64,000 bases of DNA from a virus (Duplodnaviria; Caudoviricetes): positions 32,001-96,000 of IMG/VR virus record IMGVR_UViG_3300033068_001847; one strand, given 5' to 3'. The notes beneath the pieces are model-generated. The model saw nothing but the letters and a program-made list of their open reading frames with translations, did not search any database and had not been told where the DNA came from. Shown here piece after piece: positions 1-53,107 of this stretch. Both the position numbers and the translations under genes were made by a program. The stretch's first letter is position 1, and each line of letters starts with the position of its first letter.

Positions 1-2969
1 GTAAATATTAAATTTAATCCATCGGTACTTAATCCAGTAGTATTAGGTAATCCTTGTGTTTCTAAAGCTTTTATGTAATTATAAACTGTAGTATGAGTAT
101 TACCAGATAAGTTCAATTTGAATTTATACGATGGTTTAATTAAATAATCACCATCAGCAAAGCTATAAGCCATTGTTTCGTTAATCTCAACTTCTGGAAG
201 ATAAGTAGGTGTCATTCCAGTAAATGTTTTTGTATGAATTACCGTTGGTTCAAAGAATCTGCTATTAAAATTAAATGGATAAACTGTATATGTAAATTTA
301 TTACCTTCACTTGTTAAAAAGAACTCAGTATTACAATCAAAAATAAAATCAACCTCTTTTGAAGCTTCACTTATGTTATGAATGATAGGTGCTGTTGTTC
401 CAGTAACAATCTTCGAAACCTTCTCCATTGTTAAACATGGTTCACTAATTGAAATAATATCACTATCAATAAATGGTTTAACTCTTAAGATACCTATCTG
501 TTCTGTATTAACAGGTGGTAACGGTGGTGTTGGTGGATCTTCACCTCCCCCATCAGGATTAGGTTCTTCAGGGAAATTTAAATTACTGGTATAAGTAGTG
601 TCAACTTTAGCAAAATCCTCAACATTGAAAATGTATGGTAGGTTAATATTACCTTTTGTATCTACAGTACTTACACTAATATCAGTATTTGCTAACTGTT
701 CAGTTTCAAATTCTGACCCATCATTTTCACCTTGTTTGTAATCAAACTTCTGGCGATCAAATATAGTATTCTTATAAACTACGCCACCTTGCCAAATAGT
801 TGTACTTGGTACAAACTGTTCAACTAGATTAATCCAGAAATCACCAATTTGTTCAATGAATTTAATAACCTTATTAGTATCTAATTTCTTATCACTAACA
901 GCATAATAATCTTCATATAATTTTTTAAGAGTCGGATAACCATTACCATAAGTTTCAATTACCTTCCTATTTTTAACATTAATAAAATTAGTATATATAA
1001 AGTCTGTATATTCTAAGAATGACATCTTAGTTACATCACCTTGAGTAAACTTATTGCTTGGATATGGTACAGGTAAACCAGAAGGATTAATAACAAATCC
1101 TGTTAATTTATTATACTCATATACATCAGTTTCAACTGGTTTTGCGATATTTAAATAAATTGACGCTTCTTTACTATTTAAAATTAATTTATTATTATCA
1201 GTAGTATATTTAGTTGATCTATCAAGAAGAATATGTGAATTATTATCAATATTCCATGATTTGATATTATCAACAGTACGCTCTAATTCAAATCCTTTAT
1301 TTCCATTAAATTCACTGAAATTTTTAAAATATGAACTACCGCCATCGTAATCTCCAGTATGTATACCAATAACAGATAAAAAGTTTTTATCATTAGTAGG
1401 TACAATTTCTTTCTTTGCTGTCCATCCACCCTTCATTTGGAAATAATTATCTGTAGTATTTATTACAGGTTTTGGATATCCCTCAGCATCAAATGGTAGA
1501 TTTAAATCATCATTATTTAAAACCTCATCAACGTTAATTTTATTTTTAGCTATATATACATACTCATTAAAATCAATTAATGATTGTGGTGCTCCAATTA
1601 TTTTGAAAAGAAAATCAATACAATTTCTAGTTCCTTTAGATTTAAATAAAAATGCTGTATTAATAACTAATCTTCTCCATAACTCAATATCAGTTTCCAC
1701 TGGAGTTAAATTCTTAGTTTGACCAGAGAATATAGTTTTAGTATCTTGACCTAAAAAAGATTTCATAAGATCTCGCTCATTCACAGTTGAGAATGTTCCC
1801 CAACCTAAAGTTCTTGCGAAATTCTTCACTAAAACATCAGGCATGTTATCCTTTTTATCGTATGACGTTGTTGATAAATGAGCTAAACCATCAATGTATT
1901 TTTTGATTTCATCGAATTGATATCCGTAGATTTTTAATAACTTATCAACTTTCTTTTCCTCAGTATCGAATTCTTTTATTGAAGATGCTGTAAGGTAACG
2001 TGCAATTAAATTTGTTTTATAATCATCATACTCCTTAGCTAATTTAATTAGTGATTCACTATACTGCTCGAATTCATACGTATCATAATCTAGGTTATAT
2101 CCATCGGTAGTTTTCCAAGTAAAAGTTTCATCAACTAATACTATATTACCTTCATTATCCTCATTAGGTACTTTAAATATTGCACTGTATTTTGGATTAC
2201 TATCTCTGTTTAAAAGATAACTCTGGAAATCATTTAAATTCTTTAGGAAAAGATTGTAGTATTCATAAACAGGTTTAATATGAAATGTTTTTAAAGCTGT
2301 AGAAGTTACACCAGTAAATACATTACCCTTAACTGTTAAATAGATATAATTATCATTTACATCCTGACCAGTAAATTCAACAATTGGATATTCAGTATCT
2401 GAATACCACACCACGTATTTACTGAATGAAGTACTTATATTTCTTAAATTTTCACCATTATCTAAAAAGATATTATCGGTTTTATTAAAGCTAAGATTGT
2501 AGTTATTAGTTATAGCATTAACAGGTACTTTGAAAGTAGCTTTTTCACTATTTACATCATAATTGTAATCTAATACCGTTAACAATACATCATTAAATTC
2601 ATTATTAACAAATAATGAAGCAGGGAATTTTGAAACGATCTCAGTAATGTTGGTTTGGATATTATCCTTTAAAGATCCAAAGTATGAGAAATTAGTAAGA
2701 CTGCTCTTATCAAAATTTAACTCAACGCTGGTTAAAGAACTTTGAATATCTAATTCCGTTTTCTGATCCCTAACTATATCATCAATAGTCACGGGTTGTG
2801 AAAAACTATCAATATACTGATAAATGTTTCTTACATTTCTTTCTTCTAAGTTGGTTTTAATAGAGAAAAAGTCTCCACCTAAAGTAAAAAGATCAGTCCC
2901 TTTAGAGACACCAGTTTTTTTACTAAAGAATTGTTCATCAAAATCAGATCTTCCGTTAATTAAGCCCAT
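1..2969 (-). CDS. Large baseplate wedge/tail structural protein (gp7/tail protein I-like), C-terminus runs off the left edge
   Basis: Not in the ORF track because it has no stop in the window. ATG at 2969 overlaps the upstream stop (TAATG) and begins MGLINGRSDFDEQFFSKK. The frame was open wherever I spot-checked. Contains LFKSKGTRNCIDFLFKIIGAP, a K-x-K-G-T motif typical of baseplate wedge proteins. Confidence 0.7.
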   Translation of the reverse strand, partial: MGLINGRSDFDEQFFSKKTGVSKGTDLFTLGGDFFSIKTNLEERNVRNIYQYIDSFSQPVTIDDIVRDQKTELDIQSSLTSVELNFDKSSLTNFSYFGSLKDNIQTNITEIVSKFPASLFVNNEFNDVLLTVLDYNYDVNSEKATFKVPVNAITNNYNLSFNKTDNIFLDNGENLRNISTSFSKYVVWYSDTEYPIVEFTGQDVNDNYIYLTVKGNVFTGVTSTALKTFHIKPVYEYYNLFLKNLNDFQSYLLNRDSNPKYSAIFKVPNEDNEGNIVLVDETFTWKTTDGYNLDYDTYEFEQYSESLIKLAKEYDDYKTNLIARYLTASSIKEFDTEEKKVDKLLKIYGYQFDEIKKYIDGLAHLSTTSYDKKDNMPDVLVKNFARTLGWGTFSTVNERDLMKSFLGQDTKTIFSGQTKNLTPVETDIELWRRLVINTAFLFKSKGTRNCIDFLFKIIGAPQSLIDFNEYVYIAKNKINVDEVLNNDDLNLPFDAEGYPKPVINTTDNYFQMKGGWTAKKEIVPTNDKNFLSVIGIHTGDYDGGSSYFKNFSEFNGNKGFELERTVDNIKSWNIDNNSHILLDRSTKYTTDNNKLILNSKEASIYLNIAKPVETDVYEYNKLTGFVINPSGLPVPYPSNKFTQGDVTKMSFLEYTDFIYTNFINVKNRKVIETYGNGYPTLKKLYEDYYAVSDKKLDTNKVIKFIEQIGDFWINLVEQFVPSTTIWQGGVVYKNTIFDRQKFDYKQGENDGSEFETEQLANTDISVSTVDTKGNINLPYIFNVEDFAKVDTTYTSNLNFPEEPNPDGGGEDPPTPPLPPVNTEQIGILRVKPFIDSDIISISEPCLTMEKVSKIVTGTTAPIIHNISEASKEVDFIFDCNTEFFLTSEGNKFTYTVYPFNFNSRFFEPTVIHTKTFTGMTPTYLPEVEINETMAYSFADGDYLIKPSYKFKLNLSGNTHTTVYNYIKALETQGLPNTTGLSTDGLNLIF

Positions 2970-8529: not shown

Positions 8530-9936
8530 TTAAGTTATTAAATTATCAGTGCGCCCATCTAAAATGATGAAATTAACAGTATCTTTTTTAGTTATAGTTC
8601 CATTACTATGAATTATTATATCCATGTAATAATTTTGTGTGACCATCCATGAAGTATCTAAATAAAAGTAATTTTGATTATATCCTCTATTCACCTTGGT
8701 TTCTGGTATAACATCTATTTTAATATTACCTTGTTTGATGTATATATTATAATATATATTATCAATTATCAAACTATCATTATTAAAAAATTCTTTAGCA
8801 GTTATAATTACTTTTCTTACTTCACCTTTATTAATTCTTTCACCACGTTTTATACCTGTAAAACTAAAAGTAAATTCAGATGGTTCATATATTTCATTAC
8901 CGATATTGAAATAGTTATTATCCTTTAATGTGAAGGTCATATCTACATTAGATAATGTTCTTCCTCCAATTTCTAAACCAGTCCAAACATCAGTAAAATT
9001 CACTAATTCTAATCCATTATAATCTGAAGAAGAAAGTTCTAACTCTACTGAATATACACCCTTACCTTCTTGAGTTACACCAGTTAGTATTAAAATCTGT
9101 TCATCATTCTGATCATAAATTATAACTGATGAAGGTAATTCATCAAGGTTGGTAGGATTTTTATTAACATTAGTATATAAGTATAATTTATTTAATTTAT
9201 CAAAGTAAAATTGATTTCTATCATCCAAAATATTTTCTTCCCAAGTAGTTTCAATAAATGGTTCAAAAAATGTATGTGTATCTTTCCCATAGAAGTTAAC
9301 TCTATAAAAATCTTCAGTAATAAGATCTTCAAACTCCTGCTTAAAAGCTAAACCTAATCCATAAAAGTTACTAGTTCCACTAGTAATTAATTCATTAACA
9401 AACGATGTAATATCTACATTAATATTTTCGTTACCTAAATCAAAATGAATTGTTTCTAATTCGATATATTGATCAGAGGTATTACCTGAAAATATACCTT
9501 CCTCAGTCCAAGTACTTATATTAGTTCTTTGAAACCAGTTTGCTGGAGATGACTTAACATTACCATTTACATCTAATATTGTTCTACCATAATCAAAATC
9601 ATATCCTATACCTTCATCCCATGATTGTGGTACTTGGAATAAAACAAGATCAAATGATGATGCATGATCCTCACTAAATTCTTTTATTCTATGTAATACA
9701 TCAACATTATTAGCAACTGTATTTGTTAAATTTAATGTATGTTTTATATTATTGATAATGGTTTTATCTTCAATCTTTTCTTTAACTTTTTCAATATCAA
9801 ATGAAAAGATACAACGATTATAAAGTTTAGTTGCTCCACCGTAAACTAATTCCATTACTGGATTAAGTCCCGTGTTAACATACTTATCTTTAATAAGCGT
9901 AGTATCTTTAGTAAAATAAGTTCTATATAACCCCAT
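8530..9936 (-). CDS. Virion structural protein, possible DNRLRE/CBM-like N-terminal domain
   Basis: KDTTLIK..NTGLNPVMELVYG..RCIFSFD...QSWDEG pattern; downstream of the baseplate wedge gene. Confidence 0.5.
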   Translation of the reverse strand: MGLYRTYFTKDTTLIKDKYVNTGLNPVMELVYGGATKLYNRCIFSFDIEKVKEKIEDKTIINNIKHTLNLTNTVANNVDVLHRIKEFSEDHASSFDLVLFQVPQSWDEGIGYDFDYGRTILDVNGNVKSSPANWFQRTNISTWTEEGIFSGNTSDQYIELETIHFDLGNENINVDITSFVNELITSGTSNFYGLGLAFKQEFEDLITEDFYRVNFYGKDTHTFFEPFIETTWEENILDDRNQFYFDKLNKLYLYTNVNKNPTNLDELPSSVIIYDQNDEQILILTGVTQEGKGVYSVELELSSSDYNGLELVNFTDVWTGLEIGGRTLSNVDMTFTLKDNNYFNIGNEIYEPSEFTFSFTGIKRGERINKGEVRKVIITAKEFFNNDSLIIDNIYYNIYIKQGNIKIDVIPETKVNRGYNQNYFYLDTSWMVTQNYYMDIIIHSNGTITKKDTVNFIILDGRTDNLIT

Positions 9937-16627: not shown

Positions 16628-17455
16628 TTAACCTAGATCTGCTGGAGAGTATACAATATCACGTTCAATTTCATTTGGATTAAACAAATACTCTTTTTTT
16701 GCAGTTTCTAAGAAAAACTTACCTTCTTCAGGTTTAATTCCAGTACTGGCATCTTGGTATTGATTAAACAATGAACCTTTTCTATTTATTAAATGTTTGT
16801 AACTGATTTTTGGGATTACTACACTTTCATGATCGTTATTGATAAAACGTAATAGGAACTCATAAATGAAGTGTACTTTAATGTTTGCTTTTAAACCACC
16901 TACTTCTTCAAAAGATTCTTTATTAATAATAGCTCCACTGATCATAAAAGAGTTGTGTGTAAGTAACGTATTAAGATCTAATTTACCATGTACTTCAGAA
17001 AATCCTTGTGCCCATACACCTTCATTAATGAACTGTATCAATTTACCATCTCCATCTACTAAAACCGTAAGTGGGATAAACATTGCAGTATCTTTATATT
17101 CCTTACTCTCAGAATAAAGTTTAACGTTATTGAAATATGTTTTTGAATATTCATCATCTAACTCTAAAATTGAAAAATATTTCGTTTCAACCTTAGAAAC
17201 CCCAAAATTTACTTGAGTACAGAAATCAGTTGATTTAAGATGTTTTACAATTTCAATTTCAACACCTACTTTACTAGCAACCTTTTCAATTTCATCAACT
17301 AATGTTTGTAAGTCTGGACATACAACTAGGATTTTTGAAATTTTAGTTTCTTGATCAACTACACTAGATAATGCTTTTCCAAACAAATCTTGAGTAGTTT
17401 CATCATATAATTCATGTACTGGTACTAATACCGTTATGTCTAATTTATTCTCCAT
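16628..17455 (-). CDS. Glycosyltransferase family 2 (probable start MENKL at 17455)
   Basis: ITVLVPVH, NFGVSKVETKYFSILELDD (DxD-like) and FEEVGG motifs. Confidence 0.85.
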   Translation of the reverse strand: MENKLDITVLVPVHELYDETTQDLFGKALSSVVDQETKISKILVVCPDLQTLVDEIEKVASKVGVEIEIVKHLKSTDFCTQVNFGVSKVETKYFSILELDDEYSKTYFNNVKLYSESKEYKDTAMFIPLTVLVDGDGKLIQFINEGVWAQGFSEVHGKLDLNTLLTHNSFMISGAIINKESFEEVGGLKANIKVHFIYEFLLRFINNDHESVVIPKISYKHLINRKGSLFNQYQDASTGIKPEEGKFFLETAKKEYLFNPNEIERDIVYSPADLG

Positions 17456-17711
17456 TTTTTTCTCTTCTTTTAACTTCACGTTTTAACATTTTAACATCCT
17501 TTTCTAAATCAACACTTCCTTCGAAGGTTTCACCAGCTTTATTCGGTTTAGATTTAGAAACATGAAAAAATTCTCCTTTTAAATGTTCACGAATTGCCTT
17601 AACTCCTTCAGTTCTTAATTTTCTGTAATCCTCGTAAGACATATTCTGCGGTCTCTCATTAAGAATTAATATTTCTTTATTAATATCTTGTGTGGTTTCT
17701 ATATTATCCAT
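17445..17711 (-). CDS. Hypothetical protein (88 aa)
   Basis: Coupled ORF between two GT genes. Confidence 0.55.
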   Translation of the reverse strand: MDNIETTQDINKEILILNERPQNMSYEDYRKLRTEGVKAIREHLKGEFFHVSKSKPNKAGETFEGSVDLEKDVKMLKREVKRREKNGE

Positions 17712-21786: not shown

Positions 21787-22056
21787 TTACCATCCTTCAA
21801 CAACTTTAATAAAGTGTACAACTTCTTTACCTGCTTCACCCTGATTTTCCAGTATCTTAACAATATGTCTTGAATCAAACTGAGCTACAGATAGTATATC
21901 ATAAAAGAATCTATAAATATCTACTTCGGAACATTTTCCATTTTCAACATCATGAACAAAATTTATTAAATCAGATGACATATGATTTATTTGTTGTTCT
22001 TCTTTAGTATATATTTTTCTCATATTATTTTCTAAACGTCCAAAAGTTGTTCTCAT
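21787..22056 (-). CDS. Hypothetical protein (start may be MRKIY)
   Basis: Fills the gap between glf and the methyltransferase. Confidence 0.5.
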   Translation of the reverse strand: MRTTFGRLENNMRKIYTKEEQQINHMSSDLINFVHDVENGKCSEVDIYRFFYDILSVAQFDSRHIVKILENQGEAGKEVVHFIKVVEGW

Positions 22057-38128: not shown

Positions 38129-39961
38129 TTATTTCACTTCATAAGAGAATGTAAATGAATAAATGTATGCTATATCTGTACTAGTTGTGTATGTAAAAGA
38201 TGCAGTATCATTAACTGTATTAGCTATTAATGATACTGGATTAGCTGTACTTACAGGTCCAAAACAAACACCATTTAAATCTGTTGCAACTGTAAAGTTA
38301 GATGATATTGGTAAACTTATTTCCACTGTTGTAACTGTACTAGTTCCATTTGTTGCATCAATTTCCATTTTACCATATACAGTTACTATATTATCTACTC
38401 TTGTATATTGACATTTATATGCAGTAGTACTAGTAATATTAGCAACATTTGTTAATGTCGGTGTATAAGTACCTCCAGTCATGTTTCCACCTGAACCGCT
38501 AGAAACACTACCATCAGCCATTAAATATTGACTAGAAGTTCCACCTGACTTAACAAATGATAATGCAGTTAATGTACCTGAATCACTAAGTATTATTTTA
38601 CTTACTCCATTAGTTCTAGCATTTAAAAAATCTCCAGAAGCACCACCAGTATTCTCAACAAGTAGATTATATGTTGTACCAGTACCATTATTAATGAATC
38701 TAGCGTTTTGAGTTTTTTTATAATTATTTGATTGTATGTTTGTGGGGTTATTACTTCCACCATTATTCTTTATATCTATACCATATGTTCCACCATTATT
38801 ATTTATAACTAATGCTGTATTAGCTTTATTTGTTATTGTTGCAGTCCCATTATAGTCTATACTAAATATAGTACCGTTATTATTAAATGAATTTTCAATA
38901 AAAAGACTATTCGAAAAGTTTCTAAGTCTAAAATCAGTCCTACCAGTATCTCCATATGTTATACCTGATGTAGTAAAATCAATTGATGATGATGATCCAC
39001 TTGACAATCTATTAAGTTCAATTTTTGTTGTTGTGCCTGTACTTGAAAATCGCTTAACCCCAACAAAAGTTTGATCTATAGTTGTCATTATACCACCGAA
39101 AGAAGATGATGCTGGTTCTAAATTTAATATTCCTGATGATAATGTTAAACCTGAAGCATTCGGTGTATTACCAATAATTTCTGTACTAACTCCACCACCT
39201 GTACTAACAGATCCATCTGCCATTAAATATTCTGATGATGTACCTCCTGATTTAATGAAAGCTGGTGATGTAAATGTACCCGAAGTTTTTACATTTCCGT
39301 TTAATCCTATATTAAAATAAGCATTACCTCTAGTGATATGAAAACTATTACTAGCAACACTCATAAAAGCCGCTATACCGCTACTAGGCATACCAATAGT
39401 CCAATCATCACTATTGGGACTTAATGTACCGAACGTAAGTCCAGCAGTATATCCAGTGGTAAATCTATGTATAGCTACTATAGTATTGCCACTAGGATTT
39501 TGAAAATAACTATTAGAACTGCTAAAAGTTTTAGATCCACCGATTGATTGATTTAGTGTTGTTAATATACCTCCGTTAGTTAATGAAGCTGGTTGTAATA
39601 TTAATGTACCTCCAGATATAGTTACACCTGATGAATTAGGAACGTTTCCTATAACACCTGCTGTTATTGATCCACTATCAGTAGATACACTTCCATCAGC
39701 CATAAGATACTGACTAGATGTACCTCCTGATTTAACAAATGAATTTGCTTGTATTGTAGTACCAGTTAATCCATTAGTTAATGTTCCACCTGTTAACGGT
39801 AACAATAATGTTAAACCAGAAGCTATCACATCAACATTTTCTTTTGTTAAATTAGCTAGTTCTGTAAATGTATTTCCAACATTATAAGGACTAATAGATT
39901 TATTTTTAGTCTTACTTGTAATGTTTACGGTTACACCCGTTAAAAAGGAGTTTATATTCAT
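38129..39961 (-). CDS. Tail fibre/adhesin-like protein (610 aa)
   Basis: G/S/T-rich; three KSGGTSSxYLMADGSVS-type repeats; C-terminal GTYTPTL..CQYTRVDNIVTVYG domain shared with two paralogs. Confidence 0.72.
   Translation of the reverse strand: MNINSFLTGVTVNITSKTKNKSISPYNVGNTFTELANLTKENVDVIASGLTLLLPLTGGTLTNGLTGTTIQANSFVKSGGTSSQYLMADGSVSTDSGSITAGVIGNVPNSSGVTISGGTLILQPASLTNGGILTTLNQSIGGSKTFSSSNSYFQNPSGNTIVAIHRFTTGYTAGLTFGTLSPNSDDWTIGMPSSGIAAFMSVASNSFHITRGNAYFNIGLNGNVKTSGTFTSPAFIKSGGTSSEYLMADGSVSTGGGVSTEIIGNTPNASGLTLSSGILNLEPASSSFGGIMTTIDQTFVGVKRFSSTGTTTKIELNRLSSGSSSSIDFTTSGITYGDTGRTDFRLRNFSNSLFIENSFNNNGTIFSIDYNGTATITNKANTALVINNNGGTYGIDIKNNGGSNNPTNIQSNNYKKTQNARFINNGTGTTYNLLVENTGGASGDFLNARTNGVSKIILSDSGTLTALSFVKSGGTSSQYLMADGSVSSGSGGNMTGGTYTPTLTNVANITSTTAYKCQYTRVDNIVTVYGKMEIDATNGTSTVTTVEISLPISSNFTVATDLNGVCFGPVSTANPVSLIANTVNDTASFTYTTSTDIAYIYSFTFSYEVK
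38847..39202. repeat. 356-bp perfect direct repeat, copy 1
   Basis: Identical base for base to 49246-49601 (offset 10,399). Confidence 0.92.
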
Positions 39962-39970: not shown

Positions 39971-40435
39971 TTAATTAAATTCTTCGGTAAATGTATTATT
40001 GAAAATATCATTTCCACTTCTATTACTTCTATTATATTCATTAAATAACGAGCTTACAATATTAATATATAGATCATCGTTTATTGGAGCTATAAAAGTT
40101 CCAGTTATATTACTTTCTTCAGTGTCATAAAATTCAATTTTAAACTCACCTTTATATCTACCTATCTTATTAGTATCTTTTTCAGAGAATTTATAGTAGA
40201 TATAATATTCTTCTTCTTTCACTAAACAATCCACGCAAGGTTCTTTTAATATTATACCTGCCCTTTGTTTAGTAATTCGGTAACTATTATTTTCAACATC
40301 AAACATGGAAAATGTAATAGTACTATTTTCTAATGCGTTGTAGAATTCTTCATATAAAAAATAATTATCTTTATTTAATCGCATTACTAAAATAGGTAAT
40401 GTAGCTCCTTGTTTAATATTAAACTCTTGTATCAT
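39971..40435 (-). CDS. BppU N-terminal-like virion protein
   Basis: FNIKQGATLPIL..ITFSM..YYKFSEKDT..GRYKGEFKI pattern. Confidence 0.6.
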   Translation of the reverse strand: MIQEFNIKQGATLPILVMRLNKDNYFLYEEFYNALENSTITFSMFDVENNSYRITKQRAGIILKEPCVDCLVKEEEYYIYYKFSEKDTNKIGRYKGEFKIEFYDTEESNITGTFIAPINDDLYINIVSSLFNEYNRSNRSGNDIFNNTFTEEFN

Positions 40436-40436: not shown

Positions 40437-41786
40437 CTATTTAGTTAAATTTGAATTAATAATTATTTCTGATCCACCAAAATTCTCTGGTCTCCTATAA
40501 ATATCTTTGAATGTATAATAATTTCTAATAATTTCAGGAATAGTTAGGGGTCGGCTGTACATGGATGCTACTGAAATTCCACCTATAAATGATCCAGAAA
40601 ATTCACGTTCCATAAAAAGTCCAGTATCTTCACTATCAACCCCATCAAAGGTTATACTTTCAAGTAATCCTTGAGTACCACCACCGATTGAAATATTAAA
40701 GGGTACACCTTGTTGTTTACTACGATGTAATTCTAATTCTCTGAATATTGGTTCTTCAATCATTGTTTTATATACTGGTCTACCATTAACTAAGAAAGTT
40801 AATTTACCCTTTTGAGTATCTGGTATATCTTCGAATGATGTACATTCCTCTATATAATCAGCACAAAAACTTGTTAATCGTTGATTACGCTTGAATATGA
40901 TAGTTACGTTAATCCAACTATTTTCAGTATCTCCCGTAAAAATTAACGGTGTTTCTTCTTCCTTTATAGATGTAAGTGTATTACCTGAAATATCCTTGCG
41001 AACTATTACTGATTTATATCCTAGCTTATTATCTTTATAAAAGAATCCAATCCCATTTACATCATTAACAGTTGTTCCAGTATCATAGGTTAAACCTGTA
41101 CTAATTAAACTTGTATCACCCGTAACTGGTGATATTAATGTATTTTCTGAAGTAGTTTTTCCAGTTTCATTATCAATAATATTATGAAATTTATTCTCGG
41201 ATCTTGATCCCATGAAGAAAAAGAAACCCTTATTTTCTGGATAAATGCTATTCAATGAATTTGTATTTGTAGATACTTCTTGAGGGTTTAGCCAGAAATT
41301 TAAGGTAAATCCTTCCTCAGTTCTATTAGGTAACATTAAATAAGGGTAATCATACAATTTGTAAAATCCTTGATAAAATCCTCCGTCTAAACTTAAATAA
41401 CTCTTATGAATGTAAGTGTCATTTTCAAAGCTAAGATTATAATTATATGTTGATCCTGTAACTGGTTTAAGTAATAAAGTAGATCCAGTGGTGAATGTTA
41501 CAGTATCACCAGTTATGTTTTGCATATAACCAGTATCTACACCACATAAACCTAGATCTGAAATAGTAAATCCTGAACTTGTTCTACCTGTATAATTATA
41601 CAAACTGGTGATATTATTTACATCAGAGTACTCTGCAAAATCATAATAGAAAGTAAGATCATCAGTTATTAAATAACTTTCTGCTAAACTTCCTTTCTCA
41701 AAATCTAAATCCTTATCATCAGTTAAAACTAAATCAAAAGAATATATATTAACAAAATCAAATTGTAAATTTTTTGAATTATCCAT
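40437..41786 (-). CDS. Virion protein with LamG/concanavalin-like features
   Basis: FTLNFWL, WINVTIIF, TFLVNG and FIGGIS..MYSRPLT..EI..NY are LamG-like motifs. Confidence 0.55.
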   Translation of the reverse strand: MDNSKNLQFDFVNIYSFDLVLTDDKDLDFEKGSLAESYLITDDLTFYYDFAEYSDVNNITSLYNYTGRTSSGFTISDLGLCGVDTGYMQNITGDTVTFTTGSTLLLKPVTGSTYNYNLSFENDTYIHKSYLSLDGGFYQGFYKLYDYPYLMLPNRTEEGFTLNFWLNPQEVSTNTNSLNSIYPENKGFFFFMGSRSENKFHNIIDNETGKTTSENTLISPVTGDTSLISTGLTYDTGTTVNDVNGIGFFYKDNKLGYKSVIVRKDISGNTLTSIKEEETPLIFTGDTENSWINVTIIFKRNQRLTSFCADYIEECTSFEDIPDTQKGKLTFLVNGRPVYKTMIEEPIFRELELHRSKQQGVPFNISIGGGTQGLLESITFDGVDSEDTGLFMEREFSGSFIGGISVASMYSRPLTIPEIIRNYYTFKDIYRRPENFGGSEIIINSNLTK

Positions 41787-43020: not shown

Positions 43021-43024
43021 CTTA

Positions 43025-43195: not shown

Positions 43196-43248
43196 AATTA
43201 TTTTCTTAATTTATATTAATATAATTTTTAATTTATTTTTTATAAATA

Positions 43249-43515: not shown

Positions 43516-43556
43516 ATAAATAATATATATTTATTTATTTAATATTTAAAGTTTAT

Positions 43557-43982: not shown

Positions 43983-44007
43983 ATTTTTTTATATTAATTA
44001 TTTTTTT

Positions 44008-44325
44008 TTAATCAGATTCACATCTTGAAGTAGCTTCTATCCATCCTCCAGTTATTACTACTGAATCATCTACACAATAAGAAGTACCTTCTATCCATCC
44101 TCCAGTAACTGCATCTACTGGTAAAAATGTTCTTTTTGGAACTAAATAATTATCACCATGACCAGCCATATTTGTACTATCAAATACATACTTTTCAATA
44201 GCTTCTGATTTAGTTACTGGTTCTTGTGAAGTCACATGGAACTGTCCCGGTTTTAAATCAAATCCACTAGTTTGTAAATCTGTAAATGTCACCATATATT
44301 TAAGACCTTTATCTACCCAAGCCAT
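44008..44325 (-). CDS. Hypothetical protein (105 aa) with a tandem TGGWIE repeat
   Basis: VTGGWIEGTSYC and ITGGWIEATSRC. Confidence 0.5.
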   Translation of the reverse strand: MAWVDKGLKYMVTFTDLQTSGFDLKPGQFHVTSQEPVTKSEAIEKYVFDSTNMAGHGDNYLVPKRTFLPVDAVTGGWIEGTSYCVDDSVVITGGWIEATSRCESD

Positions 44326-47300
44326 TTAATTGTTCTTTTAATTTTTTTATTTCATCTTCTAAATCCTCTACTTTAGCAACAAGTACTGCTGTATAATTTA
44401 TTGATAGAAAACCATTGTTATTAGTAAATACTGCTTCAGGCATATAATTTTGTACTTGTTGTGCAGAATATCCATAATTAATATTAGTGCCTTTAATTGC
44501 ATCTTTCCATGTCCAAGCAATTGCTGTAATACCATTTGCACTGAATTTCTTATTAACTATATTTTTAAGTCGTATATCAGAAGTTTCAATAAAATTATCT
44601 GCTGTTATATCAGAACCTACTGTCATTGCACCATTTACGTTAGCAATAGATACTCTTGTTGTCCAAGTTCCTGTTCTAAATGTTTGAAGCTGCATATCAC
44701 CATCATCACCTAGATGAAATGCTGCACCTCTTGTAGCTGTTACAGAGTCATTAAGTTGTAACCTCGCTCCAGTTGATAGATCATCATCTGCGGCTTTTGT
44801 TATAAAAACCTGCCCGTTTTCAATACCTAAATTTTTATTGAATGCCGTATTACCTCTTCCAAGTACAGTATCTATTGTATCTACCTCAGTAAAAGAAGTT
44901 AAATAACCCGCATCATTTGTGAAATAACTAACTCCAGTAGGTTTACCAGTTACATCAGTCCATGCAGGTACATAACTTATAGATTTATATAAACCAGCAT
45001 GATTACCCCAACTATAGGCTGTATTACCATTTGAAATATCTGTAGTAGTTGGAATTACATAACCTGCTGTTAAAGTAAGTGCTAGAGTACCTGATGTTGT
45101 GATTGGATTACCTGCTATACTTAAACCAGTAGGTACACTCATATTTACTGATGTCACTGTACCTGCATTACTAGTATATCCGTTTGGATTACTTGCTAAA
45201 TAATATGTAGAGTTATCGTAACTTATTACACCTCCTGTACTTTTAACAAAACCTGTTCCTATTAAAGCATCTTGTTTTCCATGCCAAATAACAGATGATG
45301 ATATATAAGTATCAGCAATAGGAGTTCCTTGCCAAGTACCTGTACCGATTGTACCTAATGTTGTAATTGAGGTTTGACCTACATATGTTGATGCTATATC
45401 AATTGTAGGTGTTAATCCACCACCCCCTGAAACAGTTATTCTATTAGGTGTTCCAGTAGTTGTTATTGTCCAAGTTCTATCAGTTGTTAAATTTTGAGTT
45501 GAACCATTAATAGTTATATTAGTTGCAGAAGTTGTATATGTAGTAGAAGGTATTTCTTCATATGCATTGGTTGAATTATTTTTAACTACTAATGTATATC
45601 CTCCTGAACTATATGTTGTTGGATCATTGTAAATCGTTGCTTGGAACGTTTTAGATCCACTAAATGTTTGAGATCCAGTAGTTACATAACCTGAATCACT
45701 TGCACTAGCAGGAATGGAGCTTATAATACCTGTACCTGAACTATAAAATATAGGGTATGTTGCAGATAAATCAATATCTGCTCGAACTTCAGCACCAGTT
45801 CTAAATTTTAAATCACCTCCATCAGATACAATAAACTTATCAACATCTGTTGTAGCAGCCTGTAAATTGGTTATAGTGATATTAGGTGTAGTAAATCTAC
45901 CTATATCACTAAGTGTTGTTGTTGTAACTGAATTTTTAGTATATGTAAATGGGTTACCTGTAGCTGCTGTAGCATGATTTATGTTAATAGACTTTGCACC
46001 AGCAAGAGTTGTATTAATATCAATAGCAGTTCCACCTGTATTAAATATACGCACACCTGTACCAGTTGAAGTATTTGCAATATCTATACCTATACTGGTA
46101 TTTATATTACTTACATAAATACCTTTACCACTTGTATTATTACTTACACTATAACCATTCCCTGAAGAGGAATTAGAAACATGTACACCATTACCACTAC
46201 TACCATTAAAAAGATCAATACCAATACCAGTACTACTATTAGTTACACTTATACCTCTACCAGTATTTGTATTATCTACATGTAATCCTCTAGCTGTATT
46301 ACTATTGGTCAATTGGAAACCATATCCATTACTAGAATTATTTAAATAAATACCATAACCAGTACTACTATTATTAATATCTATTCCTATTCCACCAGAT
46401 ATATTATTAATATATGTTGCTTTACCTGTAGAACTATTTGTTACATCAATAGCATTATCAGTACCTGAATATATTATAGTATGACCGTAACCTGTAGTTA
46501 TTGTTTGAAGTATACTGTGGTTAGTTCCTAAATCAATATTTTTAGTTGCACCAGTATAAGGAACATATAAATCATTACCTTGACCTAATGTTATAAATTC
46601 ATCTAATTCAATAGCATCATCACCAATTACTCTTCCACTGAATCTTGCTGATATCAAATCAGTAGTAAATAAATCTAACTTATATGTGGGTGATATCCCA
46701 AATCCAATTTTATGAGTTGTATCACCTATTAAAACAACGTTATTGACTGAACTGGATAGATTATGACCAATTAATATATTATTGGTTAAAGTACTACTAG
46801 CATTAATATTATTACCAACATAAATACTATCAGATCCTGATGTAATACCGCTTGCAGTATAAGTACCTATACCAATATTTCTTGATCCAGAGGTGATTCC
46901 ACTAAAACTACCTTGACCGATACCAATAACTGAAGCACCAGTATTTGAAACATTCAAATTACCAGCATTAACACCTAAATAAAGACTAGTTTCATTAAAT
47001 GTTCCTGTAGTATGTAATATTCTATTACCATTTTTCCAAAGTGTTTTACCATAATAAAAATGATCACCTACAGTTGCATTTCCACTGATTCTAAATTTTT
47101 TATTTTCTATTACAGCATCTTGATTTCTTATAAAATTTAAATCAGCTTCTGGTTTACTATATGTATAACCAGATTGAATATATCTACCATCTAAATTTAC
47201 AATTACATTAGTTTCATCATTTTTTTTCTTTAATGTTAAATCACCATTATTAACATTAAATGTTGCTCCTGTTAAATAGATATCAATTGGTGGTGTGTAA

Positions 47301-47779
47301 GGATCTGAGTCAATTAATAACTCTCTCCATATAGTCTCTAAACGAGTCATAGGAGGATAATAAGTACCAGTGTCTATACCACCTAATTTTCCGCTAGGTA
47401 TGTTTGTAGTTAATCCAGAAAGTAATACAGGAGATTCAGATGTAGTTGCACCTGATAACATTGTAAAAACTAAAGAACTTCCAGAAACAATAACAACGTG
47501 ACCTTCATAACCTGAATAAGTAAATGGTGTATCAGTTAATTGTAAAAAACTAGTTGCACCTGATGTACCTATTCCACCAGTCATTCCACTAAGTGGTGCA
47601 GATAGTACTAAACCATATTCATCAGTAAAAAGGATGTTTGGATTATTATAACCGCCAAGTCTTGCAACTCCCGGTAGTATTAGATTTTCACCTAAATTAA
47701 TTGATCCCGCTAAAATTGCAGTTTTACCTGTTTCGATTCTAGCCTGCTTAGTTAAGTCGAGCTTTGTTATATATGCCAT
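44309..47779 (-). CDS. Long tail fibre/spike with beta-helix-like repeats and a C-terminal intramolecular chaperone (peptidase S74)
   Basis: N.S.G.GI.I repeats; TSDIRLKNI..YGYSAQQVQ..PEAV..LSINY..coiled coil is the S74 chaperone pattern. Confidence 0.85.
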   Translation of the reverse strand: MAYITKLDLTKQARIETGKTAILAGSINLGENLILPGVARLGGYNNPNILFTDEYGLVLSAPLSGMTGGIGTSGATSFLQLTDTPFTYSGYEGHVVIVSGSSLVFTMLSGATTSESPVLLSGLTTNIPSGKLGGIDTGTYYPPMTRLETIWRELLIDSDPYTPPIDIYLTGATFNVNNGDLTLKKKNDETNVIVNLDGRYIQSGYTYSKPEADLNFIRNQDAVIENKKFRISGNATVGDHFYYGKTLWKNGNRILHTTGTFNETSLYLGVNAGNLNVSNTGASVIGIGQGSFSGITSGSRNIGIGTYTASGITSGSDSIYVGNNINASSTLTNNILIGHNLSSSVNNVVLIGDTTHKIGFGISPTYKLDLFTTDLISARFSGRVIGDDAIELDEFITLGQGNDLYVPYTGATKNIDLGTNHSILQTITTGYGHTIIYSGTDNAIDVTNSSTGKATYINNISGGIGIDINNSSTGYGIYLNNSSNGYGFQLTNSNTARGLHVDNTNTGRGISVTNSSTGIGIDLFNGSSGNGVHVSNSSSGNGYSVSNNTSGKGIYVSNINTSIGIDIANTSTGTGVRIFNTGGTAIDINTTLAGAKSININHATAATGNPFTYTKNSVTTTTLSDIGRFTTPNITITNLQAATTDVDKFIVSDGGDLKFRTGAEVRADIDLSATYPIFYSSGTGIISSIPASASDSGYVTTGSQTFSGSKTFQATIYNDPTTYSSGGYTLVVKNNSTNAYEEIPSTTYTTSATNITINGSTQNLTTDRTWTITTTGTPNRITVSGGGGLTPTIDIASTYVGQTSITTLGTIGTGTWQGTPIADTYISSSVIWHGKQDALIGTGFVKSTGGVISYDNSTYYLASNPNGYTSNAGTVTSVNMSVPTGLSIAGNPITTSGTLALTLTAGYVIPTTTDISNGNTAYSWGNHAGLYKSISYVPAWTDVTGKPTGVSYFTNDAGYLTSFTEVDTIDTVLGRGNTAFNKNLGIENGQVFITKAADDDLSTGARLQLNDSVTATRGAAFHLGDDGDMQLQTFRTGTWTTRVSIANVNGAMTVGSDITADNFIETSDIRLKNIVNKKFSANGITAIAWTWKDAIKGTNINYGYSAQQVQNYMPEAVFTNNNGFLSINYTAVLVAKVEDLEDEIKKLKEQLNGLGR

Positions 47780-47861
47780 GTTTCTGAATTATGTGATTTT
47801 ATATAAAATCATAAACCTTAAAAAGGATGTAATTCTTTTATATAAATAGTTCAGAAAATTA

Positions 47862-49790
47862 TTATTTAATTATATAACTAAAAGTAAATCTATGATTTTC
47901 TGATCCTAGACTATATAAAAAGCTTGTAATATTTAATAAAGCATTATCATTTGATGTATCTGCCATTATAGTTAAAACTACACTATTGTTTAAATTTGTC
48001 CATGCACCTAAACCAGATAAATCATCAGTATGTGTAAAATTTGACGGAATTGGTAAGGATAAATTTATAGTTGTTGTAGTACTGTTAGCATTAACGTCAA
48101 AATCTAAATTTCCATATACCGTTACAACATCTCCAACTCTAGTGTATGTACATGTATGGGCACTACTTGAGGTTATATTAGTAGCATTAGATAAAGTTGG
48201 AACATATGTTCCACTTAATAAATTATTAGCAGATGTATTTCCTGTTACAACTAAATTACTATTAATTTGTGTAGTACCTGATCCAGTATAATGAAATTTT
48301 ATATTACCATTACCATCCGAAATTATAATATTATCTGATATATTACCTAACATATAATTACCTGCACCAATAACAGTATTAGCTGATCCAGTACTTATCC
48401 CATTTATGTTAAATCCTACAAACGTATTCCTAATACCAGTGTTAATATTTGTACCACTACCACCACCAATTACTGTATTATATGAACCAGTACTTATTGA
48501 TGATATATTAAATGCACCTATACCGACATTCTGTTCACCACTGGTTAAATAACCACCTAATACATTACTACCAATAGCTATATTATAATTACCTGAAGGA
48601 GTACCACCAGTAGCATTTCTTAATGCACCTTCACCAAATACTAAATTTCCACTACCACCATTATCTCTACCAATACCAACGGTAATATTACCTCCAATTA
48701 AAATATTTCGATCACTTGTTAAATGTAAAACACTAGTAAAAGTATTTCCAGACCTACTAAAACCCATTCGTAATTCACCAGTACTTGCAGTTGTACCTTG
48801 AACTGGTAATGTCCAAATTCTCCATTCATTATCTTCTGGACCATTACTTGTAGTATATGCGTTACTTGTAAATCGAAGTGCTGGTGCTGGTCTTTGAGAA
48901 CCATTACTTGCTACGGTGTAATTGTCATTAGCTAATCGAAGTCCATCTGCTAATGTTGCTCCACTAACATTTAAAAGAACTAATAACCCATCATCTTGTA
49001 TTTTTAATCTTTCTACTGAAGATTTACTATAAACAAAGGGTGCACCAGTAGCTGAAACACCGTTATCAATTCTTAATCCTTCACCACTACCTATATTATA
49101 TATACCTACATTTCGACTAGCTTTATAATTATAAGATTGAAAATTAATTCCATTTGAACCATTATTATTACTAATATTTATACCAAATGCACCTTTATAA
49201 TCTACATATAATGCTGTATTTGATTTTGTATTTAAAGTAACAGAACCATTATAGTCTATACTAAATATAGTACCGTTATTATTAAATGAATTTTCAATAA
49301 AAAGACTATTCGAAAAGTTTCTAAGTCTAAAATCAGTCCTACCAGTATCTCCATATGTTATACCTGATGTAGTAAAATCAATTGATGATGATGATCCACT
49401 TGACAATCTATTAAGTTCAATTTTTGTTGTTGTGCCTGTACTTGAAAATCGCTTAACCCCAACAAAAGTTTGATCTATAGTTGTCATTATACCACCGAAA
49501 GAAGATGATGCTGGTTCTAAATTTAATATTCCTGATGATAATGTTAAACCTGAAGCATTCGGTGTATTACCAATAATTTCTGTACTAACTCCACCACCTG
49601 TTGAACCAGTAGAAGCTGTGAAATCAGCACTTAGAAAACTGCCATCACCTAAACCTAATAAAATAGTATTTGTACTTGTACCTGTAATGTTTAATGAAAT
49701 TGGTCTCTTATTATAACCAATTGTCCAATTTTCAGCAAGCGATCTAGTAACGTAATTTGGTATATCAGAAAGATTACTATTTAAACCCAT
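47862..49790 (-). CDS. Tail fibre/adhesin-like protein (642 aa)
   Basis: YadA-head-like NIAIG/NTVIG repeats; C-terminal domain shared with paralogs; carries repeat copy 2. Confidence 0.72.
   Translation of the reverse strand: MGLNSNLSDIPNYVTRSLAENWTIGYNKRPISLNITGTSTNTILLGLGDGSFLSADFTASTGSTGGGVSTEIIGNTPNASGLTLSSGILNLEPASSSFGGIMTTIDQTFVGVKRFSSTGTTTKIELNRLSSGSSSSIDFTTSGITYGDTGRTDFRLRNFSNSLFIENSFNNNGTIFSIDYNGSVTLNTKSNTALYVDYKGAFGINISNNNGSNGINFQSYNYKASRNVGIYNIGSGEGLRIDNGVSATGAPFVYSKSSVERLKIQDDGLLVLLNVSGATLADGLRLANDNYTVASNGSQRPAPALRFTSNAYTTSNGPEDNEWRIWTLPVQGTTASTGELRMGFSRSGNTFTSVLHLTSDRNILIGGNITVGIGRDNGGSGNLVFGEGALRNATGGTPSGNYNIAIGSNVLGGYLTSGEQNVGIGAFNISSISTGSYNTVIGGGSGTNINTGIRNTFVGFNINGISTGSANTVIGAGNYMLGNISDNIIISDGNGNIKFHYTGSGTTQINSNLVVTGNTSANNLLSGTYVPTLSNATNITSSSAHTCTYTRVGDVVTVYGNLDFDVNANSTTTTINLSLPIPSNFTHTDDLSGLGAWTNLNNSVVLTIMADTSNDNALLNITSFLYSLGSENHRFTFSYIIK
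49246..49601. repeat. 356-bp perfect direct repeat, copy 2
   Basis: Identical to 38847-39202. Confidence 0.92.
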
Positions 49791-49855
49791 TTATCTCTTT
49801 TATTATAAATATTATCATTTACAATTTTATAAGGGATAAGTTAATTAATAGTAAT

Positions 49856-52216
49856 TTATACTAATATTTCATAACTAAAACTAAATGTATATAATTGACT
49901 TACACTTGTTTGATCAAAAAATGCACTTATTTCATCATTTGTAGTATCAGCAGTTAATGAACCCAAAAAATTGTTAGGTTTACTAACCATAAGTCCATTT
50001 AAATTTTCAACAGATGTAAAATTAGAAGGTATAGGTAAACTCATTCTCATCAATCCAGTACCTGCGCCATTACTTTGAATATTAACTGATCCATGAACAG
50101 TTACAATATTACCTATTCTAATAAATTGACATATATGTGGAACTGTTGCTGTTATTCCAGATATGTGTGTTGTTGTTGGAGTGTATGTTCCTCCTGAGAT
50201 ATTATTTGCTGTTACATTACCACTAAAAGTAGCTGTTTGACCTGAACTAATTACTAATGCCTGAGTTTCGTTAGTATAAACATACCAATCAGTCCCTGAA
50301 TAACCATAATTTACTAATCCATTACCAGATGTATAAATATCCCATTTATTAGCACCAGAAGTTTTAAATTTAATTTGACTATTAGAACTTCCGTCTAATA
50401 TTAAATTTGGAGTTGAAGTTCCACTTATTGTAATATTATTACCATATAAACCAGTACCTGTTACTATAGTATTTCCAGAAACATATAATTTTTCAGTAGG
50501 TGAGGTATGGTTAATACCTAAGTTTCCATTACCATTTAAAATCATTCTGGTAGATCTAGTTTGGACTGAGTTACCTGAAGATAAAGTTTGAGATGTTCTG
50601 AATTCAATATTACTAGTTCCTGTTCCTACTCCAATACCTGCTAATAATTGTAAAGTACCTCCTGCAAGGTTATTACTACCACCACCTTGTGTTGAACCAG
50701 CACCTATTGTTAAAATTTGTCCTACAACTGTATTACTGGAATTAGTAATACCAATACTCTTACCAGCACCATTGGTAAACTCCAAATTAAAGTTAGGTGA
50801 TGTTGATATTGTACCAATACTCATATTTCCGGCAATACCGAAATGTCCTGCTGCCTGAACTTCTGCTAATGGTGTACCACTTGGTGTACCGCTAAGAATT
50901 AAAGTTTTAGTTTGTGTTTGAATGGAAAATGTTCCTGTATTATCAAAAACAAATGATGATTTTAATGCACCTGCTATTAATGCAGCAGCTTTACCAGAAC
51001 TATTATCTACTATAAATGCGGCATCTGGTGAACGAGATACTGTAAGATTACTTGTAAACCTTTTAGCTCCTGCAAATGTCTGAGCACCTGTCGTTGTAAT
51101 ACCACCAAATGATGTATTAGCGGGTTGTAAATATAAAGTATTTCCAGAAATAGTTGCACCTGAAGCATTTGGAACACTATCTATTATACCCATACTTAAG
51201 TTATATCCAGTAGAAACTGAACCGTCTGCCATAAGGTACTGACTAGATGTTCCACCAGATTTTATAAATGAATTTGCTGTTAAAGTACCTGTTAAAGTAC
51301 CACCAGTTAATGATAAGTAATTTAGTGGTGGTATCGTTGTCAAATACGTATTTGAGTCTACAGAACCATCTGCTTTAAGAAATTGTGAACTTGTACCACC
51401 TGATTTTATAAATGAATTTGATAATAAATCTCCGCTTTTACTCATTGAAGATCTTAATTGTCCATTATGTCTCCATTCTTGTATAGCACCGATCCCGGTA
51501 TTAGCTGTATTATCTGCAATGAATGTAGGTGTTGTTGTTCCTACATTTGAAACTCTTAGAGCATGACTACTATTACTTGGATAATTTATTTCTAATGAAC
51601 CTGTTGTTGATTTATCTCCTGTTAGTCCTGATTGATCCGTATTAATAGTCCAACTACCACTTGTTGATCCAGTACTAACAGTTCCATCAGCCATTAAGTA
51701 CTGCGAACTTGTACCACCTATTTTGATAAATGAATTGGCTGTAATATCTCCACTTAAACCTATAGTTGTACCTGATAATAAATTAGTAAGTGTTCCACCT
51801 GATAAGGGTAAATAAGAACCTGATGTAATTCCAGTAAGATCACTTAAAAATGCAATTGTACCACCTTTATTAGGCATAGTTACATTCCAATTAGATGAAA
51901 ATGTACCTGTTAGGAAAGATCCGTTTGTATCATCTTGACTTTTTAAACCTAAACTTTTAGTTCCAATACCATCTCCACTGATTGCTGTAAAACCACTAGT
52001 GAATGTATTTGTTACCATTAACGTAGCAAATGATGACACCATATTAAGATCACCAGTTAACGTACCACCTGTTAAAGGTAAATAATCTGATAAATCAGGA
52101 AAAGTAACAATATTTGTATGACCCGATATTGCAGATATAGGTAAAGTAGATCCTGTAATTTGAGAACCTTTTAATTTAAGTTCAACTATTTGTTCTTGTC
52201 TTATTAACGATGCCAT
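49856..52216 (-). CDS. Tail fibre/adhesin-like protein (786 aa)
   Basis: YLPLTGGTLTG fibre motifs, three SFIKxGGTSSQ repeats, GNLGINHTSP and the shared C-terminal domain. Confidence 0.75.
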   Translation of the reverse strand: MASLIRQEQIVELKLKGSQITGSTLPISAISGHTNIVTFPDLSDYLPLTGGTLTGDLNMVSSFATLMVTNTFTSGFTAISGDGIGTKSLGLKSQDDTNGSFLTGTFSSNWNVTMPNKGGTIAFLSDLTGITSGSYLPLSGGTLTNLLSGTTIGLSGDITANSFIKIGGTSSQYLMADGTVSTGSTSGSWTINTDQSGLTGDKSTTGSLEINYPSNSSHALRVSNVGTTTPTFIADNTANTGIGAIQEWRHNGQLRSSMSKSGDLLSNSFIKSGGTSSQFLKADGSVDSNTYLTTIPPLNYLSLTGGTLTGTLTANSFIKSGGTSSQYLMADGSVSTGYNLSMGIIDSVPNASGATISGNTLYLQPANTSFGGITTTGAQTFAGAKRFTSNLTVSRSPDAAFIVDNSSGKAAALIAGALKSSFVFDNTGTFSIQTQTKTLILSGTPSGTPLAEVQAAGHFGIAGNMSIGTISTSPNFNLEFTNGAGKSIGITNSSNTVVGQILTIGAGSTQGGGSNNLAGGTLQLLAGIGVGTGTSNIEFRTSQTLSSGNSVQTRSTRMILNGNGNLGINHTSPTEKLYVSGNTIVTGTGLYGNNITISGTSTPNLILDGSSNSQIKFKTSGANKWDIYTSGNGLVNYGYSGTDWYVYTNETQALVISSGQTATFSGNVTANNISGGTYTPTTTHISGITATVPHICQFIRIGNIVTVHGSVNIQSNGAGTGLMRMSLPIPSNFTSVENLNGLMVSKPNNFLGSLTADTTNDEISAFFDQTSVSQLYTFSFSYEILV

Positions 52217-52228
52217 TACTTATAAATA

Positions 52229-53107
52229 TTATGATACCTTATAATCAGCAATAATATCATCAGTTGGGAAAGGTGGAATGGTGAAGGTTATTTCATCACT
52301 TCCAGTTTCGGTATATTGATCATCACGTATTTGACGAATACCATTTAAATATATTTTTGAAGATCCAGATACAAAATTATAAGTGGTGGTAAAAACAGTA
52401 TTTACACCATCTAATACACCAGTTAATCCATAATCACTATATTCATCACCACCACTAAGACTATACCTGCCATCTAAATTTGTAATAAAAGACCCTAAAA
52501 GAGTGGTAAGAGTTAAATTACCATTTGTTGCATTAAAATCTAAATCGGTAATACTACCTCCACCACTTCCACCACCTGCACCGGGGACATAAATTACAAT
52601 ATCTATTATTTGGTCATCACTTAATGGTTCATTTAAAATAATATTATGACTAAGAGTAGTGGTATATTCACTCTCGTTTAATCTCGCACCGTTAATAAAA
52701 ATATCTAGGTAATCACTATTGAATGGAACTACTGTAGTAATTGTAGTTTGACCGTCTGTAGAAATATAGGTTTCAACAACCCTTCCAAGTCCAGACGTTG
52801 ATCCTGTTCCGATATCAGTATTATAACTAGTAATTAATACTTTATCATTATTTAATTCAATTGAGATATTCGGACCAGCTTCTAACGTATAGAACATGCG
52901 ATCTTCGAAATCAAAGGTTTGAATTAAACCTTCATCGTTTACTGATAATACTCTATTTTCTATAGATCCGTTTAATACATATGTTAAGGATGTATTACCA
53001 CTAACTACTAAATTTTCATCTAAGGTTATACTACCTCCAAAATTTGCAGTAGTACCTGATAAAATTTTTGCTTGGCGGGTTAAGTCTAATAAAGTAGTAT
53101 ATTTCAT
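52229..53107 (-). CDS. Virion protein/fibre adaptor (292 aa)
   Basis: N-terminus homologous to the 1156-aa fibre; two [FY][IL]NG.R Ig-like repeats. Confidence 0.6.
   Translation of the reverse strand: MKYTTLLDLTRQAKILSGTTANFGGSITLDENLVVSGNTSLTYVLNGSIENRVLSVNDEGLIQTFDFEDRMFYTLEAGPNISIELNNDKVLITSYNTDIGTGSTSGLGRVVETYISTDGQTTITTVVPFNSDYLDIFINGARLNESEYTTTLSHNIILNEPLSDDQIIDIVIYVPGAGGGSGGGSITDLDFNATNGNLTLTTLLGSFITNLDGRYSLSGGDEYSDYGLTGVLDGVNTVFTTTYNFVSGSSKIYLNGIRQIRDDQYTETGSDEITFTIPPFPTDDIIADYKVS

Follow-up and report, generated by a model that had tools for sequence, protein, structure and literature searches.

To our knowledge, glycosylation of phage particles is established only in some mycobacteriophages, and there only at the ends of capsid and tail-tube proteins. 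Elsewhere, protein O-glycosyltransferases of family GT4 modify Gram-positive adhesins (SdgA/SdgB glycosylate Ser-Asp repeats and GtfA/GtfB serine-rich repeat proteins), and Bacteroidota have a general O-glycosylation system that modifies exported proteins, outside the cytoplasm, at the sequon D-(S/T)-(A/I/L/V/M/T). Here, we report an excess of the four-residue motif [S/T]-G-x-T in the tail proteins of a virus (Duplodnaviria; Caudoviricetes) and its co-distribution with a phage-encoded glycosyltransferase gene of family GT4 (29166..30356, minus strand; hereafter GT4). Coordinates refer to the window, the 64,000-nucleotide stretch that was analyzed (bases 32001-96000 of the 184,209-bp IMG/VR record IMGVR_UViG_3300033068_001847, 28% G+C). 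We regard it as an even call whether the motif is an acceptor tag for O-glycosylation by GT4; if it is, no acceptor sequon for phage-particle glycosylation would have been defined before it and no tail-fibre case known, and a motif so short and readable would allow such systems to be predicted from sequence data alone.

GT4 has the family and fold of SdgA/SdgB and GtfA/GtfB, which are soluble, nucleotide-sugar-using enzymes acting on a very short, repeated Ser-containing acceptor. Their acceptors are long low-complexity repeats, whereas the candidate sites here are scattered loops in folded domains. With the Bacteroidota system the locus shares a short sequon, and Bacteroidota are also the probable hosts of the viral clade (on the basis of metagenome-assembled genome bins and of PMC12619734 on similar phages). 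Unlike in that system, D-(S/T)-(A/I/L/V/M/T) is depleted in this phage (22 observed vs 39.4 expected, z -2.9).

In mycobacteriophage Che8 and its relatives, capsid and tail-tube subunits carry glycans at their C-terminal ends, as chemistry has shown (Freeman et al. 2023, Cell Host Microbe, as cited in PMC12619734 and PMC12801897). As far as these citing papers describe that system, the present locus resembles it in having phage-encoded glycosyltransferases (here five supported by Pfam, with the UDP-galactopyranose mutase Glf and a methyltransferase), for which virion proteins in the cytoplasm of the infected cell are the proposed targets. The candidate sites here differ from the mycobacteriophage C-terminal ends in being four residues long and lying in internal loops of the fibres, the sheath, the baseplate and a lectin-fold protein; the citing papers mention no such defined sequon, neither the hosts nor the phage lineages are related, and the mycobacteriophage system is chemically demonstrated whereas the present one is proposed from sequence.

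A further parallel lies in bacterial adhesins. In the cytoplasm, TibC attaches heptose to Ser in an NSGGAV loop of the beta-helix of TibA, and TibC/AAH O-glycosylate many serines in short Ser-Gly loops between the strands of the repetitive adhesins TibA and AIDA-I (PMC4358343). The candidate sites share the Ser-Gly loop beside beta-strands, a likeness in sequence and secondary structure only. TibC, in contrast, resembles GT9 enzymes, forms a dodecamer, has an iron finger and modifies Ser, not Thr (PMC4358343). The candidate enzyme here is a GT4, S and T interchange at the first position and Thr would be needed at +3. A search with PF01075 (GT9) found nothing in G000, G005, G025 or G013 and matched only in an unrelated megaphage, LR756501.1.

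Motif counts and controls

Open reading frames (ORFs; 255) were called over the whole genome record and [ST]G.T was counted in each. Expected counts came from shuffling each protein, with shuffling inside blocks of 10-100 residues as a second control. The excess was confirmed. Out of 125 matches genome-wide, 107 fall in 16 fibre, baseplate, sheath and lectin-like proteins, for which ~22 were expected (z ~18, ~5x excess); the remaining 239 proteins hold 18, with 19.0 expected. The 16 comprise 8 fibre-cassette genes (75 observed vs 16.7 expected, z 14), 6 upstream of or overlapping the window start, forming the upstream baseplate block (22 vs 3.2), and 2 downstream, the sheath and one further protein (10 vs 1.9). 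The relevant genes, all on the minus strand where marked (-), are as follows.

3..2969 (-): baseplate-wedge-like protein, N-terminal 989 of 1324 amino acids, the rest lying before the window start; 5 motifs in the window, 9 in total vs 1.06 expected
8530..9936 (-): 468-amino-acid protein; 2 motifs vs 0.41 expected, alone not significant
38129..39961 (-): 610-amino-acid fibre protein; 17 motifs vs 3.2 expected
39971..40435 (-): 154-amino-acid protein; 0 motifs; its family neighbours that of 40437 in 76 of 80 related loci
40437..41786 (-): 449-amino-acid concanavalin-like protein (jelly-roll lectin fold); 11 motifs vs 0.8 expected
42595-43020 and 43557-43982 (-): two 141-amino-acid proteins; 2 and 3 motifs vs 0.2 and 0.3 expected
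44309..47779 (-): 1156-amino-acid long-tail-fibre-like protein, S74 chaperone domain at its C-terminus; 11 motifs vs 4.9 expected
47862..49790 (-): 642-amino-acid tailspike-like fibre protein; 10 motifs vs 2.4 expected
49856..52216 (-): 786-amino-acid fibre protein; 18 motifs vs 4.0 expected
52229..53107 (-): 292-amino-acid protein whose N-terminus resembles that of 44309; 3 motifs vs 0.9 expected
77509-80154 (window numbering, beyond the window end): tail sheath protein, 881 amino acids, identified with Pfam

Five of the sheath motifs are packed into residues 125-191, which probably form a surface insertion domain.

An initial annotation of the window, made from its letters alone, had listed motif tetrapeptides in several of these proteins, and every one is present: TGRT, SGFT, TGDT (three times), TGST (twice), TGKT, TGLT, TGTT and SGNT in the 40437 protein; TGVT, SGQT, TGTT, TGMT and SGNT in the part of the wedge that lies in the window; SGNT and TGVT in 8530; and TGNT and TGIT in 42595. 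It had also described many more in the fibres at 38129, 44309, 47862 and 49856, as the counts above bear out, and scarcity in polymerase, ribonucleotide reductase (RNR), helicase and glycosyltransferases, where the only hit is one in RNR. The comparison of structural with non-structural proteins that it had suggested places the excess well above G/S/T composition and confines it to the virion set. Its phrase "otherwise unrelated" suits the several folds involved and does not suit the fibres at 38129, 47862 and 49856, which have modules in common. The 63 non-virion genes of the window hold 1 motif vs 6.4 expected; set beside the chance-level count in non-virion genes genome-wide, this depletion is local and weak, if any. 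None of nine mid-sized ORFs (281-599 amino acids) checked outside the window had more than one motif.

Block shuffling yielded just 23-27 expected matches against the 107 observed, so local composition is not the cause of the excess. Ratios of observed to expected counts for control motifs were 1.35x for T.G[ST] (the reversed motif), 1.09x for [ST]G.S, 0.92x for NG.T, 0.67x for [AVLI]G.T and 0.83x for [ST]A.T, and N-x-S/T showed no excess (158 observed vs 154.2 expected). In a scan of 48,000 gapped three-residue patterns over six spacings, SG.T ranked first (z 15.6) and TG.T second (z 10.3), and the third-ranked pattern (z 8) derived from a repeated fibre module. Shared fibre modules explain little of the excess, because 93 of the 107 contexts remained after near-identical ones, just 14, were removed. 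The flanks are hydrophobic at -1/-2, with T-hydrophobic-T-hydrophobic following, a pattern that reads as a loop leading into a strand.

The lectin-fold protein

The 40437 protein was modeled with AlphaFold from 120 homologues (predicted local distance difference test score [pLDDT], 82). Its Foldseek neighbours are concanavalin-like jelly rolls (neurotoxin binding domains, the PilC lectin module and a cyanophage tailspike). The initial annotation had raised the possibility that the motifs are buried as ordinary turns; in this one folded protein most of them lie in coil immediately ahead of beta-strands and not in strand cores, which does not refute a sequon. A protein search returned 955 homologues, and motif statistics were taken on the 119 listed, which hold 1345 motifs vs 112 expected (12x excess), 75% of them in shared alignment columns. 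In these columns, position 1 is almost solely S/T and rarely D/N, position 2 holds G and position 4 mostly T, well ahead of S, with V/I rare. Some ten copies of a four-residue pattern with two obligatory hydroxyls are unusual for a nonrepetitive jelly roll. No solved structure was found for the 40437 family or for the fibres, the only match being a weak one to a Bdellovibrio fibre protein.

GT4 and its distribution in the clade

The window carries a glycan island at 16.6-30.4 kb. The initial annotation had counted about seven glycosyltransferases in this genome, a number that Pfam reduces to five, plus Glf and a methyltransferase.

16628..17479 (-): GT2-like glycosyltransferase in the variable glycan island (Pfam PF10111/PF00535, weak hits); candidate elongating enzyme
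20681..21778 (-): UDP-galactopyranose mutase, Glf (Pfam GLF, 8e-78)
22025..22672 (-): methyltransferase, TylF/sugar O-methyltransferase type (Pfam)
23295-24044 (-): GT2 (Pfam)
24217-25074 (-): GT10, fucosyltransferase-like (Pfam)
25077-25760 (-): GT7C-like (Pfam)
29166..30356 (-): GT4 glycosyltransferase (GT-B, retaining type), a core gene of the clade (Pfam Glycos_transf_1; phrog_7162)

GT4 matches PF00534 at 1.4e-08 (34.9 bits, cut-off 26.4) over residues 309-370 only and phrog_7162 "glycosyltransferase" at 7e-42. Its AlphaFold2 model (pLDDT 92.6) has a GT-B fold with two Rossmann-like domains; the best Foldseek matches are MshA, GlgM, PglA and BshA (template modeling score, 0.57-0.66) and PimB', and SdgB appears at rank ~43, with 14-15% sequence identity. 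A genome scan with PF00534 proved too insensitive for GT4 and was not used for inferring absence.

Single-protein scans of viral contigs for close relatives found nothing; alignment-based scans of IMG/VR and GTDB genomes succeeded, with >150 distinct loci. They define a large, globally distributed jumbo-phage clade, uncultured and sampled from aquatic, rumen and gut sources, in which a conserved neighbourhood joins a 40437-like gene and the polymerase to two small genes and a GT4 homologue. The latter (40-47% identity over its full length) was found no more than 10 kb away in 56 of the first 80 loci, and at another place on the contig in four of five further loci checked. Glf homologues were found by tblastn in just 3 of the 80; the remainder of the island thus differs from phage to phage. 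All six complete motif-positive genomes tested carry GT4 (G025, G026, G027, G031, G032 and G033), and a profile search of 30 additional records turned up no motif-positive genome that was complete and lacked GT4; the records still negative are fragments or ~60% complete.

In a rumen/gut subclade (16 rows, 99% support) the 40437 homologue holds 0-2 motifs, no more than chance; in the sister clades it holds 2-6 vs 0.2-0.4 expected. The subclade has no GT4 within 10 kb of that homologue, and whole-record searches of 10 of its records did not find GT4 in any; among these are G013 (339 kb, terminal repeats, 100% complete) and four records at 65-77% complete. The difference extends genome-wide to long proteins (at least 600 amino acids).

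G031, GT4 present: 115 observed vs 37.8 expected
G023, GT4 present: 50 observed vs 14.5 expected
G025, GT4 present: 25 observed vs 7.4 expected
G013, GT4 absent: 21 observed vs 15.9 expected
G012, GT4 absent: 15 observed vs 12.4 expected

Over all ORFs, G013 has 58 observed vs 48.4 expected and G012 31 vs 31.0. Relatives without glycosyltransferases had been singled out in the initial annotation as a check on its proposal, and those without GT4 thus show no enrichment.

At three motif sites retained in the sister clades, the GT4-less subclade has Gly in 47 of 48 alignment cells and keeps the middle residue too. Just 1 of the 48 cells has S/T at position 1, against 91 of 117 in the sisters (N, D, K, E or Y stand there instead), and the position-4 Thr is Asn at one site and relaxed at two. 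The turn therefore persists without the hydroxyls, and loss of the hydroxyls with Gly kept is what a lost modification-specific constraint would predict.

About 250 gene families of G023 were screened for presence in three GT4-bearing gut genomes and absence from both GT4-less ones. Seven match, three of them of unknown function and the others GT4, a thioredoxin, an OmpA-domain protein and a NADAR protein; just GT4 and thioredoxin occur in the present genome. GT2 genes persist in the GT4-less genomes, three of which (G012, G014 and G015) also have a distinct, weakly scoring GT1-like ORF of 388-391 amino acids beside the GT2 gene, which could be a replacement enzyme of other specificity. The motif thus follows this GT4 and not glycosyltransferases generally, and the suggested co-occurrence with the glycosyltransferase cluster narrows to this one gene, the island as a whole showing no such tie. 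The contingency table (89, 1, 2, 6) gives a Fisher p of 2e-07, a value that counts related sequences, and a phylogenetic sign test has only 2-5 independent pairs and no power. A possible second GT4-less lineage, L156, was set aside, its record being only 11% complete and having no close relatives.

Outgroup phages

GT4 homologues were not found in T4, phiKZ, P-SSM2 or a crAss-like phage, and their fibres overall show no motif excess. Counts in T4 are 0 vs 2.0 expected for gp34, 1 vs 1.1 for gp12 and 6 vs 2.1 for gp37; the crAss-like fibre protein has 2 vs 2.6, both in known fibre modules; and phiKZ has no enriched ORF. P-SSM2 (AY939844) carries many other glycosyltransferases, and its only [ST]G.T-rich ORF encodes a collagen-like GPT/GPP repeat protein (25115-26794). 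Phage phi92 has a 27% identical GT4 homologue in a four-glycosyltransferase cluster beside its polymerase, and its fibres are enriched ~2.6x. A general property of tail fibres was rejected as the cause on these data, four of the phages having no excess and phi92 only this mild one. In the 735-kb uncultured megaphage LR756501.1, which has a 33% identical GT4 homologue, 16 ORFs are strongly enriched and the rest are neutral (348 observed vs 345.9 expected); one of the enriched ORFs is collagen-like, with GPT repeats.

Proposed explanation and alternatives

We propose that [S/T]-G-x-T marks short loops leading into beta-strands on outward-facing tail proteins, namely the fibres, the lectin-fold protein, the outer baseplate and the insertion in the sheath. 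The first Ser/Thr would be the acceptor, the Gly and the +3 Thr would be recognition elements, and GT4 would be the initiating protein O-glycosyltransferase, acting in the cytoplasm with a nucleotide-sugar donor; enzymes of the variable island (GT2, GT10, GT7C-like, Glf and the methyltransferase) may then extend the sugar. The broader picture, in which core GT4 modifies such loops clade-wide, variable islands build lineage-specific glycans and one gut subclade has lost all of this, we hold a shade more tentatively than the acceptor role itself. If fibres and receptor-binding proteins are glycosylated, the sugars could influence how the phage recognizes its host, how stable its particles are and how well it evades proteases, antibodies or grazers; a shielding role for the virion, as first suggested, is conjecture. 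The system would offer a simple test pair, one conserved enzyme and a motif-bearing domain, with the motif-free sister clade as a natural control.

Several points weigh against this proposal. The genome record is ~53% complete (CheckV), and two motif-positive records, each 61% complete, have no detected GT4. Loss of GT4 and loss of the motif form one event, perhaps two, on the tree. The fold of GT4 is silent on the acceptor, its best matches acting on small molecules or lipids, and its gene lies near the DNA polymerase gene, outside any fibre operon. The excess in LR756501.1 is accompanied by two GT9-type (heptosyltransferase-like) genes and gives no clean pointer to GT4. Some copies of the motif belong to fibre modules of the types KSGGTSSQ[FY]L.ADGS and ...GGT[LM]T[GN]..., which are present as well in the crAss-like phage, whose fibre protein has no excess, and the flanks alternate hydrophobic residues in the manner of any strand-turn-strand element. 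The data show the excess, its specificity, conservation and co-distribution with GT4, and the loss of both hydroxyl positions, Gly staying, in relatives without GT4; from these we infer a glycan on protein, and likewise the action of GT4 on protein, the modified residue, the elongation and any biological role. Of the four refuting conditions that the initial annotation named, three were examined and none refuted its sequon, which is accordingly supported in part; its link to GT4 depends on a single evolutionary loss.

The main rival is a purely structural one, which we rate as rather unlikely: the motif would be an ST-turn plus Gly opening a beta-strand, multiplied in the fibre blocks of the clade, with the motif loss in the GT4-less subclade coincident and GT4 acting on another target (DNA, host surface glycan or a small molecule). 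The hydrophobic flanks, the position of motifs ahead of strands in the 40437 model and the single independent loss all suit it, as do column 159 of the 40437 family, where S/T alternates with D/N as in Asx-/ST-turns, the N/D substitutions of the GT4-less subclade, both turn formers, and the mild enrichment (2-3x) of T4 gp36/gp37 and phi92 fibres, for which no glycosylation is known. A turn should, however, accept N/D as well, and also V/I at position 4; in fact NG.T and [ST]G.S stay near 1x and most 40437-family sites exclude D/N. Nor does the concanavalin-like fold need the motif, since GT4-less homologues vary position 1 freely while keeping Gly and its neighbours. The excess moreover spans unrelated folds, is absent from the T4, phiKZ, P-SSM2 and crAss-like fibres overall and vanishes to chance level across the whole proteomes of two GT4-less genomes. 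DNA glycosylation as the role of GT4 was considered and rejected, the sole thymidylate-synthase-like gene scoring as a true ThyA and no hydroxymethylase being seen in the ~53% complete record; GT4 may nevertheless act in DNA modification.

It is improbable, in our judgment, that the motif is a functional tag for something besides GT4 (another modification, an enzyme in the unsequenced half, a chaperone or assembly factor, or a ligand-binding loop) that was lost together with it. The six other families with the same presence/absence pattern, the incompleteness of the record and the GT9-type enzymes of LR756501.1, with its equal excess, leave room for such a tag. Among the co-distributed families, however, only the chemistry of GT4 uses hydroxyl acceptors, only thioredoxin besides GT4 is also in this genome, and the GT9 search of G000, G005 and G025 was negative. 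An artefact of composition or of duplicated modules is hardly credible: the fibre proteins are indeed rich in G (11.6%), S (11.1%) and T (13.6%), and three of them share repeated blocks, but whole-protein and local shuffles (22-27 expected), the permuted control motifs, the unique contexts and the pattern scan together refute it.

Gene map and minor observations

The window is otherwise organized as follows.

1-15 kb: baseplate-like genes
34865-38041: family-B DNA polymerase
38129-53107: fibre cassette, including an endolysin
after the fibre cassette: RNR, helicase, a RecA/UvsX-like gene and gp32

No Pfam family was found for the 1324-amino-acid baseplate-wedge-like protein. No cultured phage is close to this genome; the polymerase has only distant matches among cultured phages and the 40437 protein none. 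The endolysin-like gene (41787-42479; DUF5675 plus a peptidoglycan-binding domain) lies within the fibre cassette. In most of the >150 loci the lectin-fold, virion-type 40437 gene directly adjoins the DNA polymerase gene, an odd yet conserved arrangement. The GT4 orthologue is split by an in-frame insertion of ~1-1.5 kb in G041, G042 and G044 (records of L137, L138 and L143), leaving open frames of 780 and 1167 amino acids; the insertion looks intein-like or homing-element-like.

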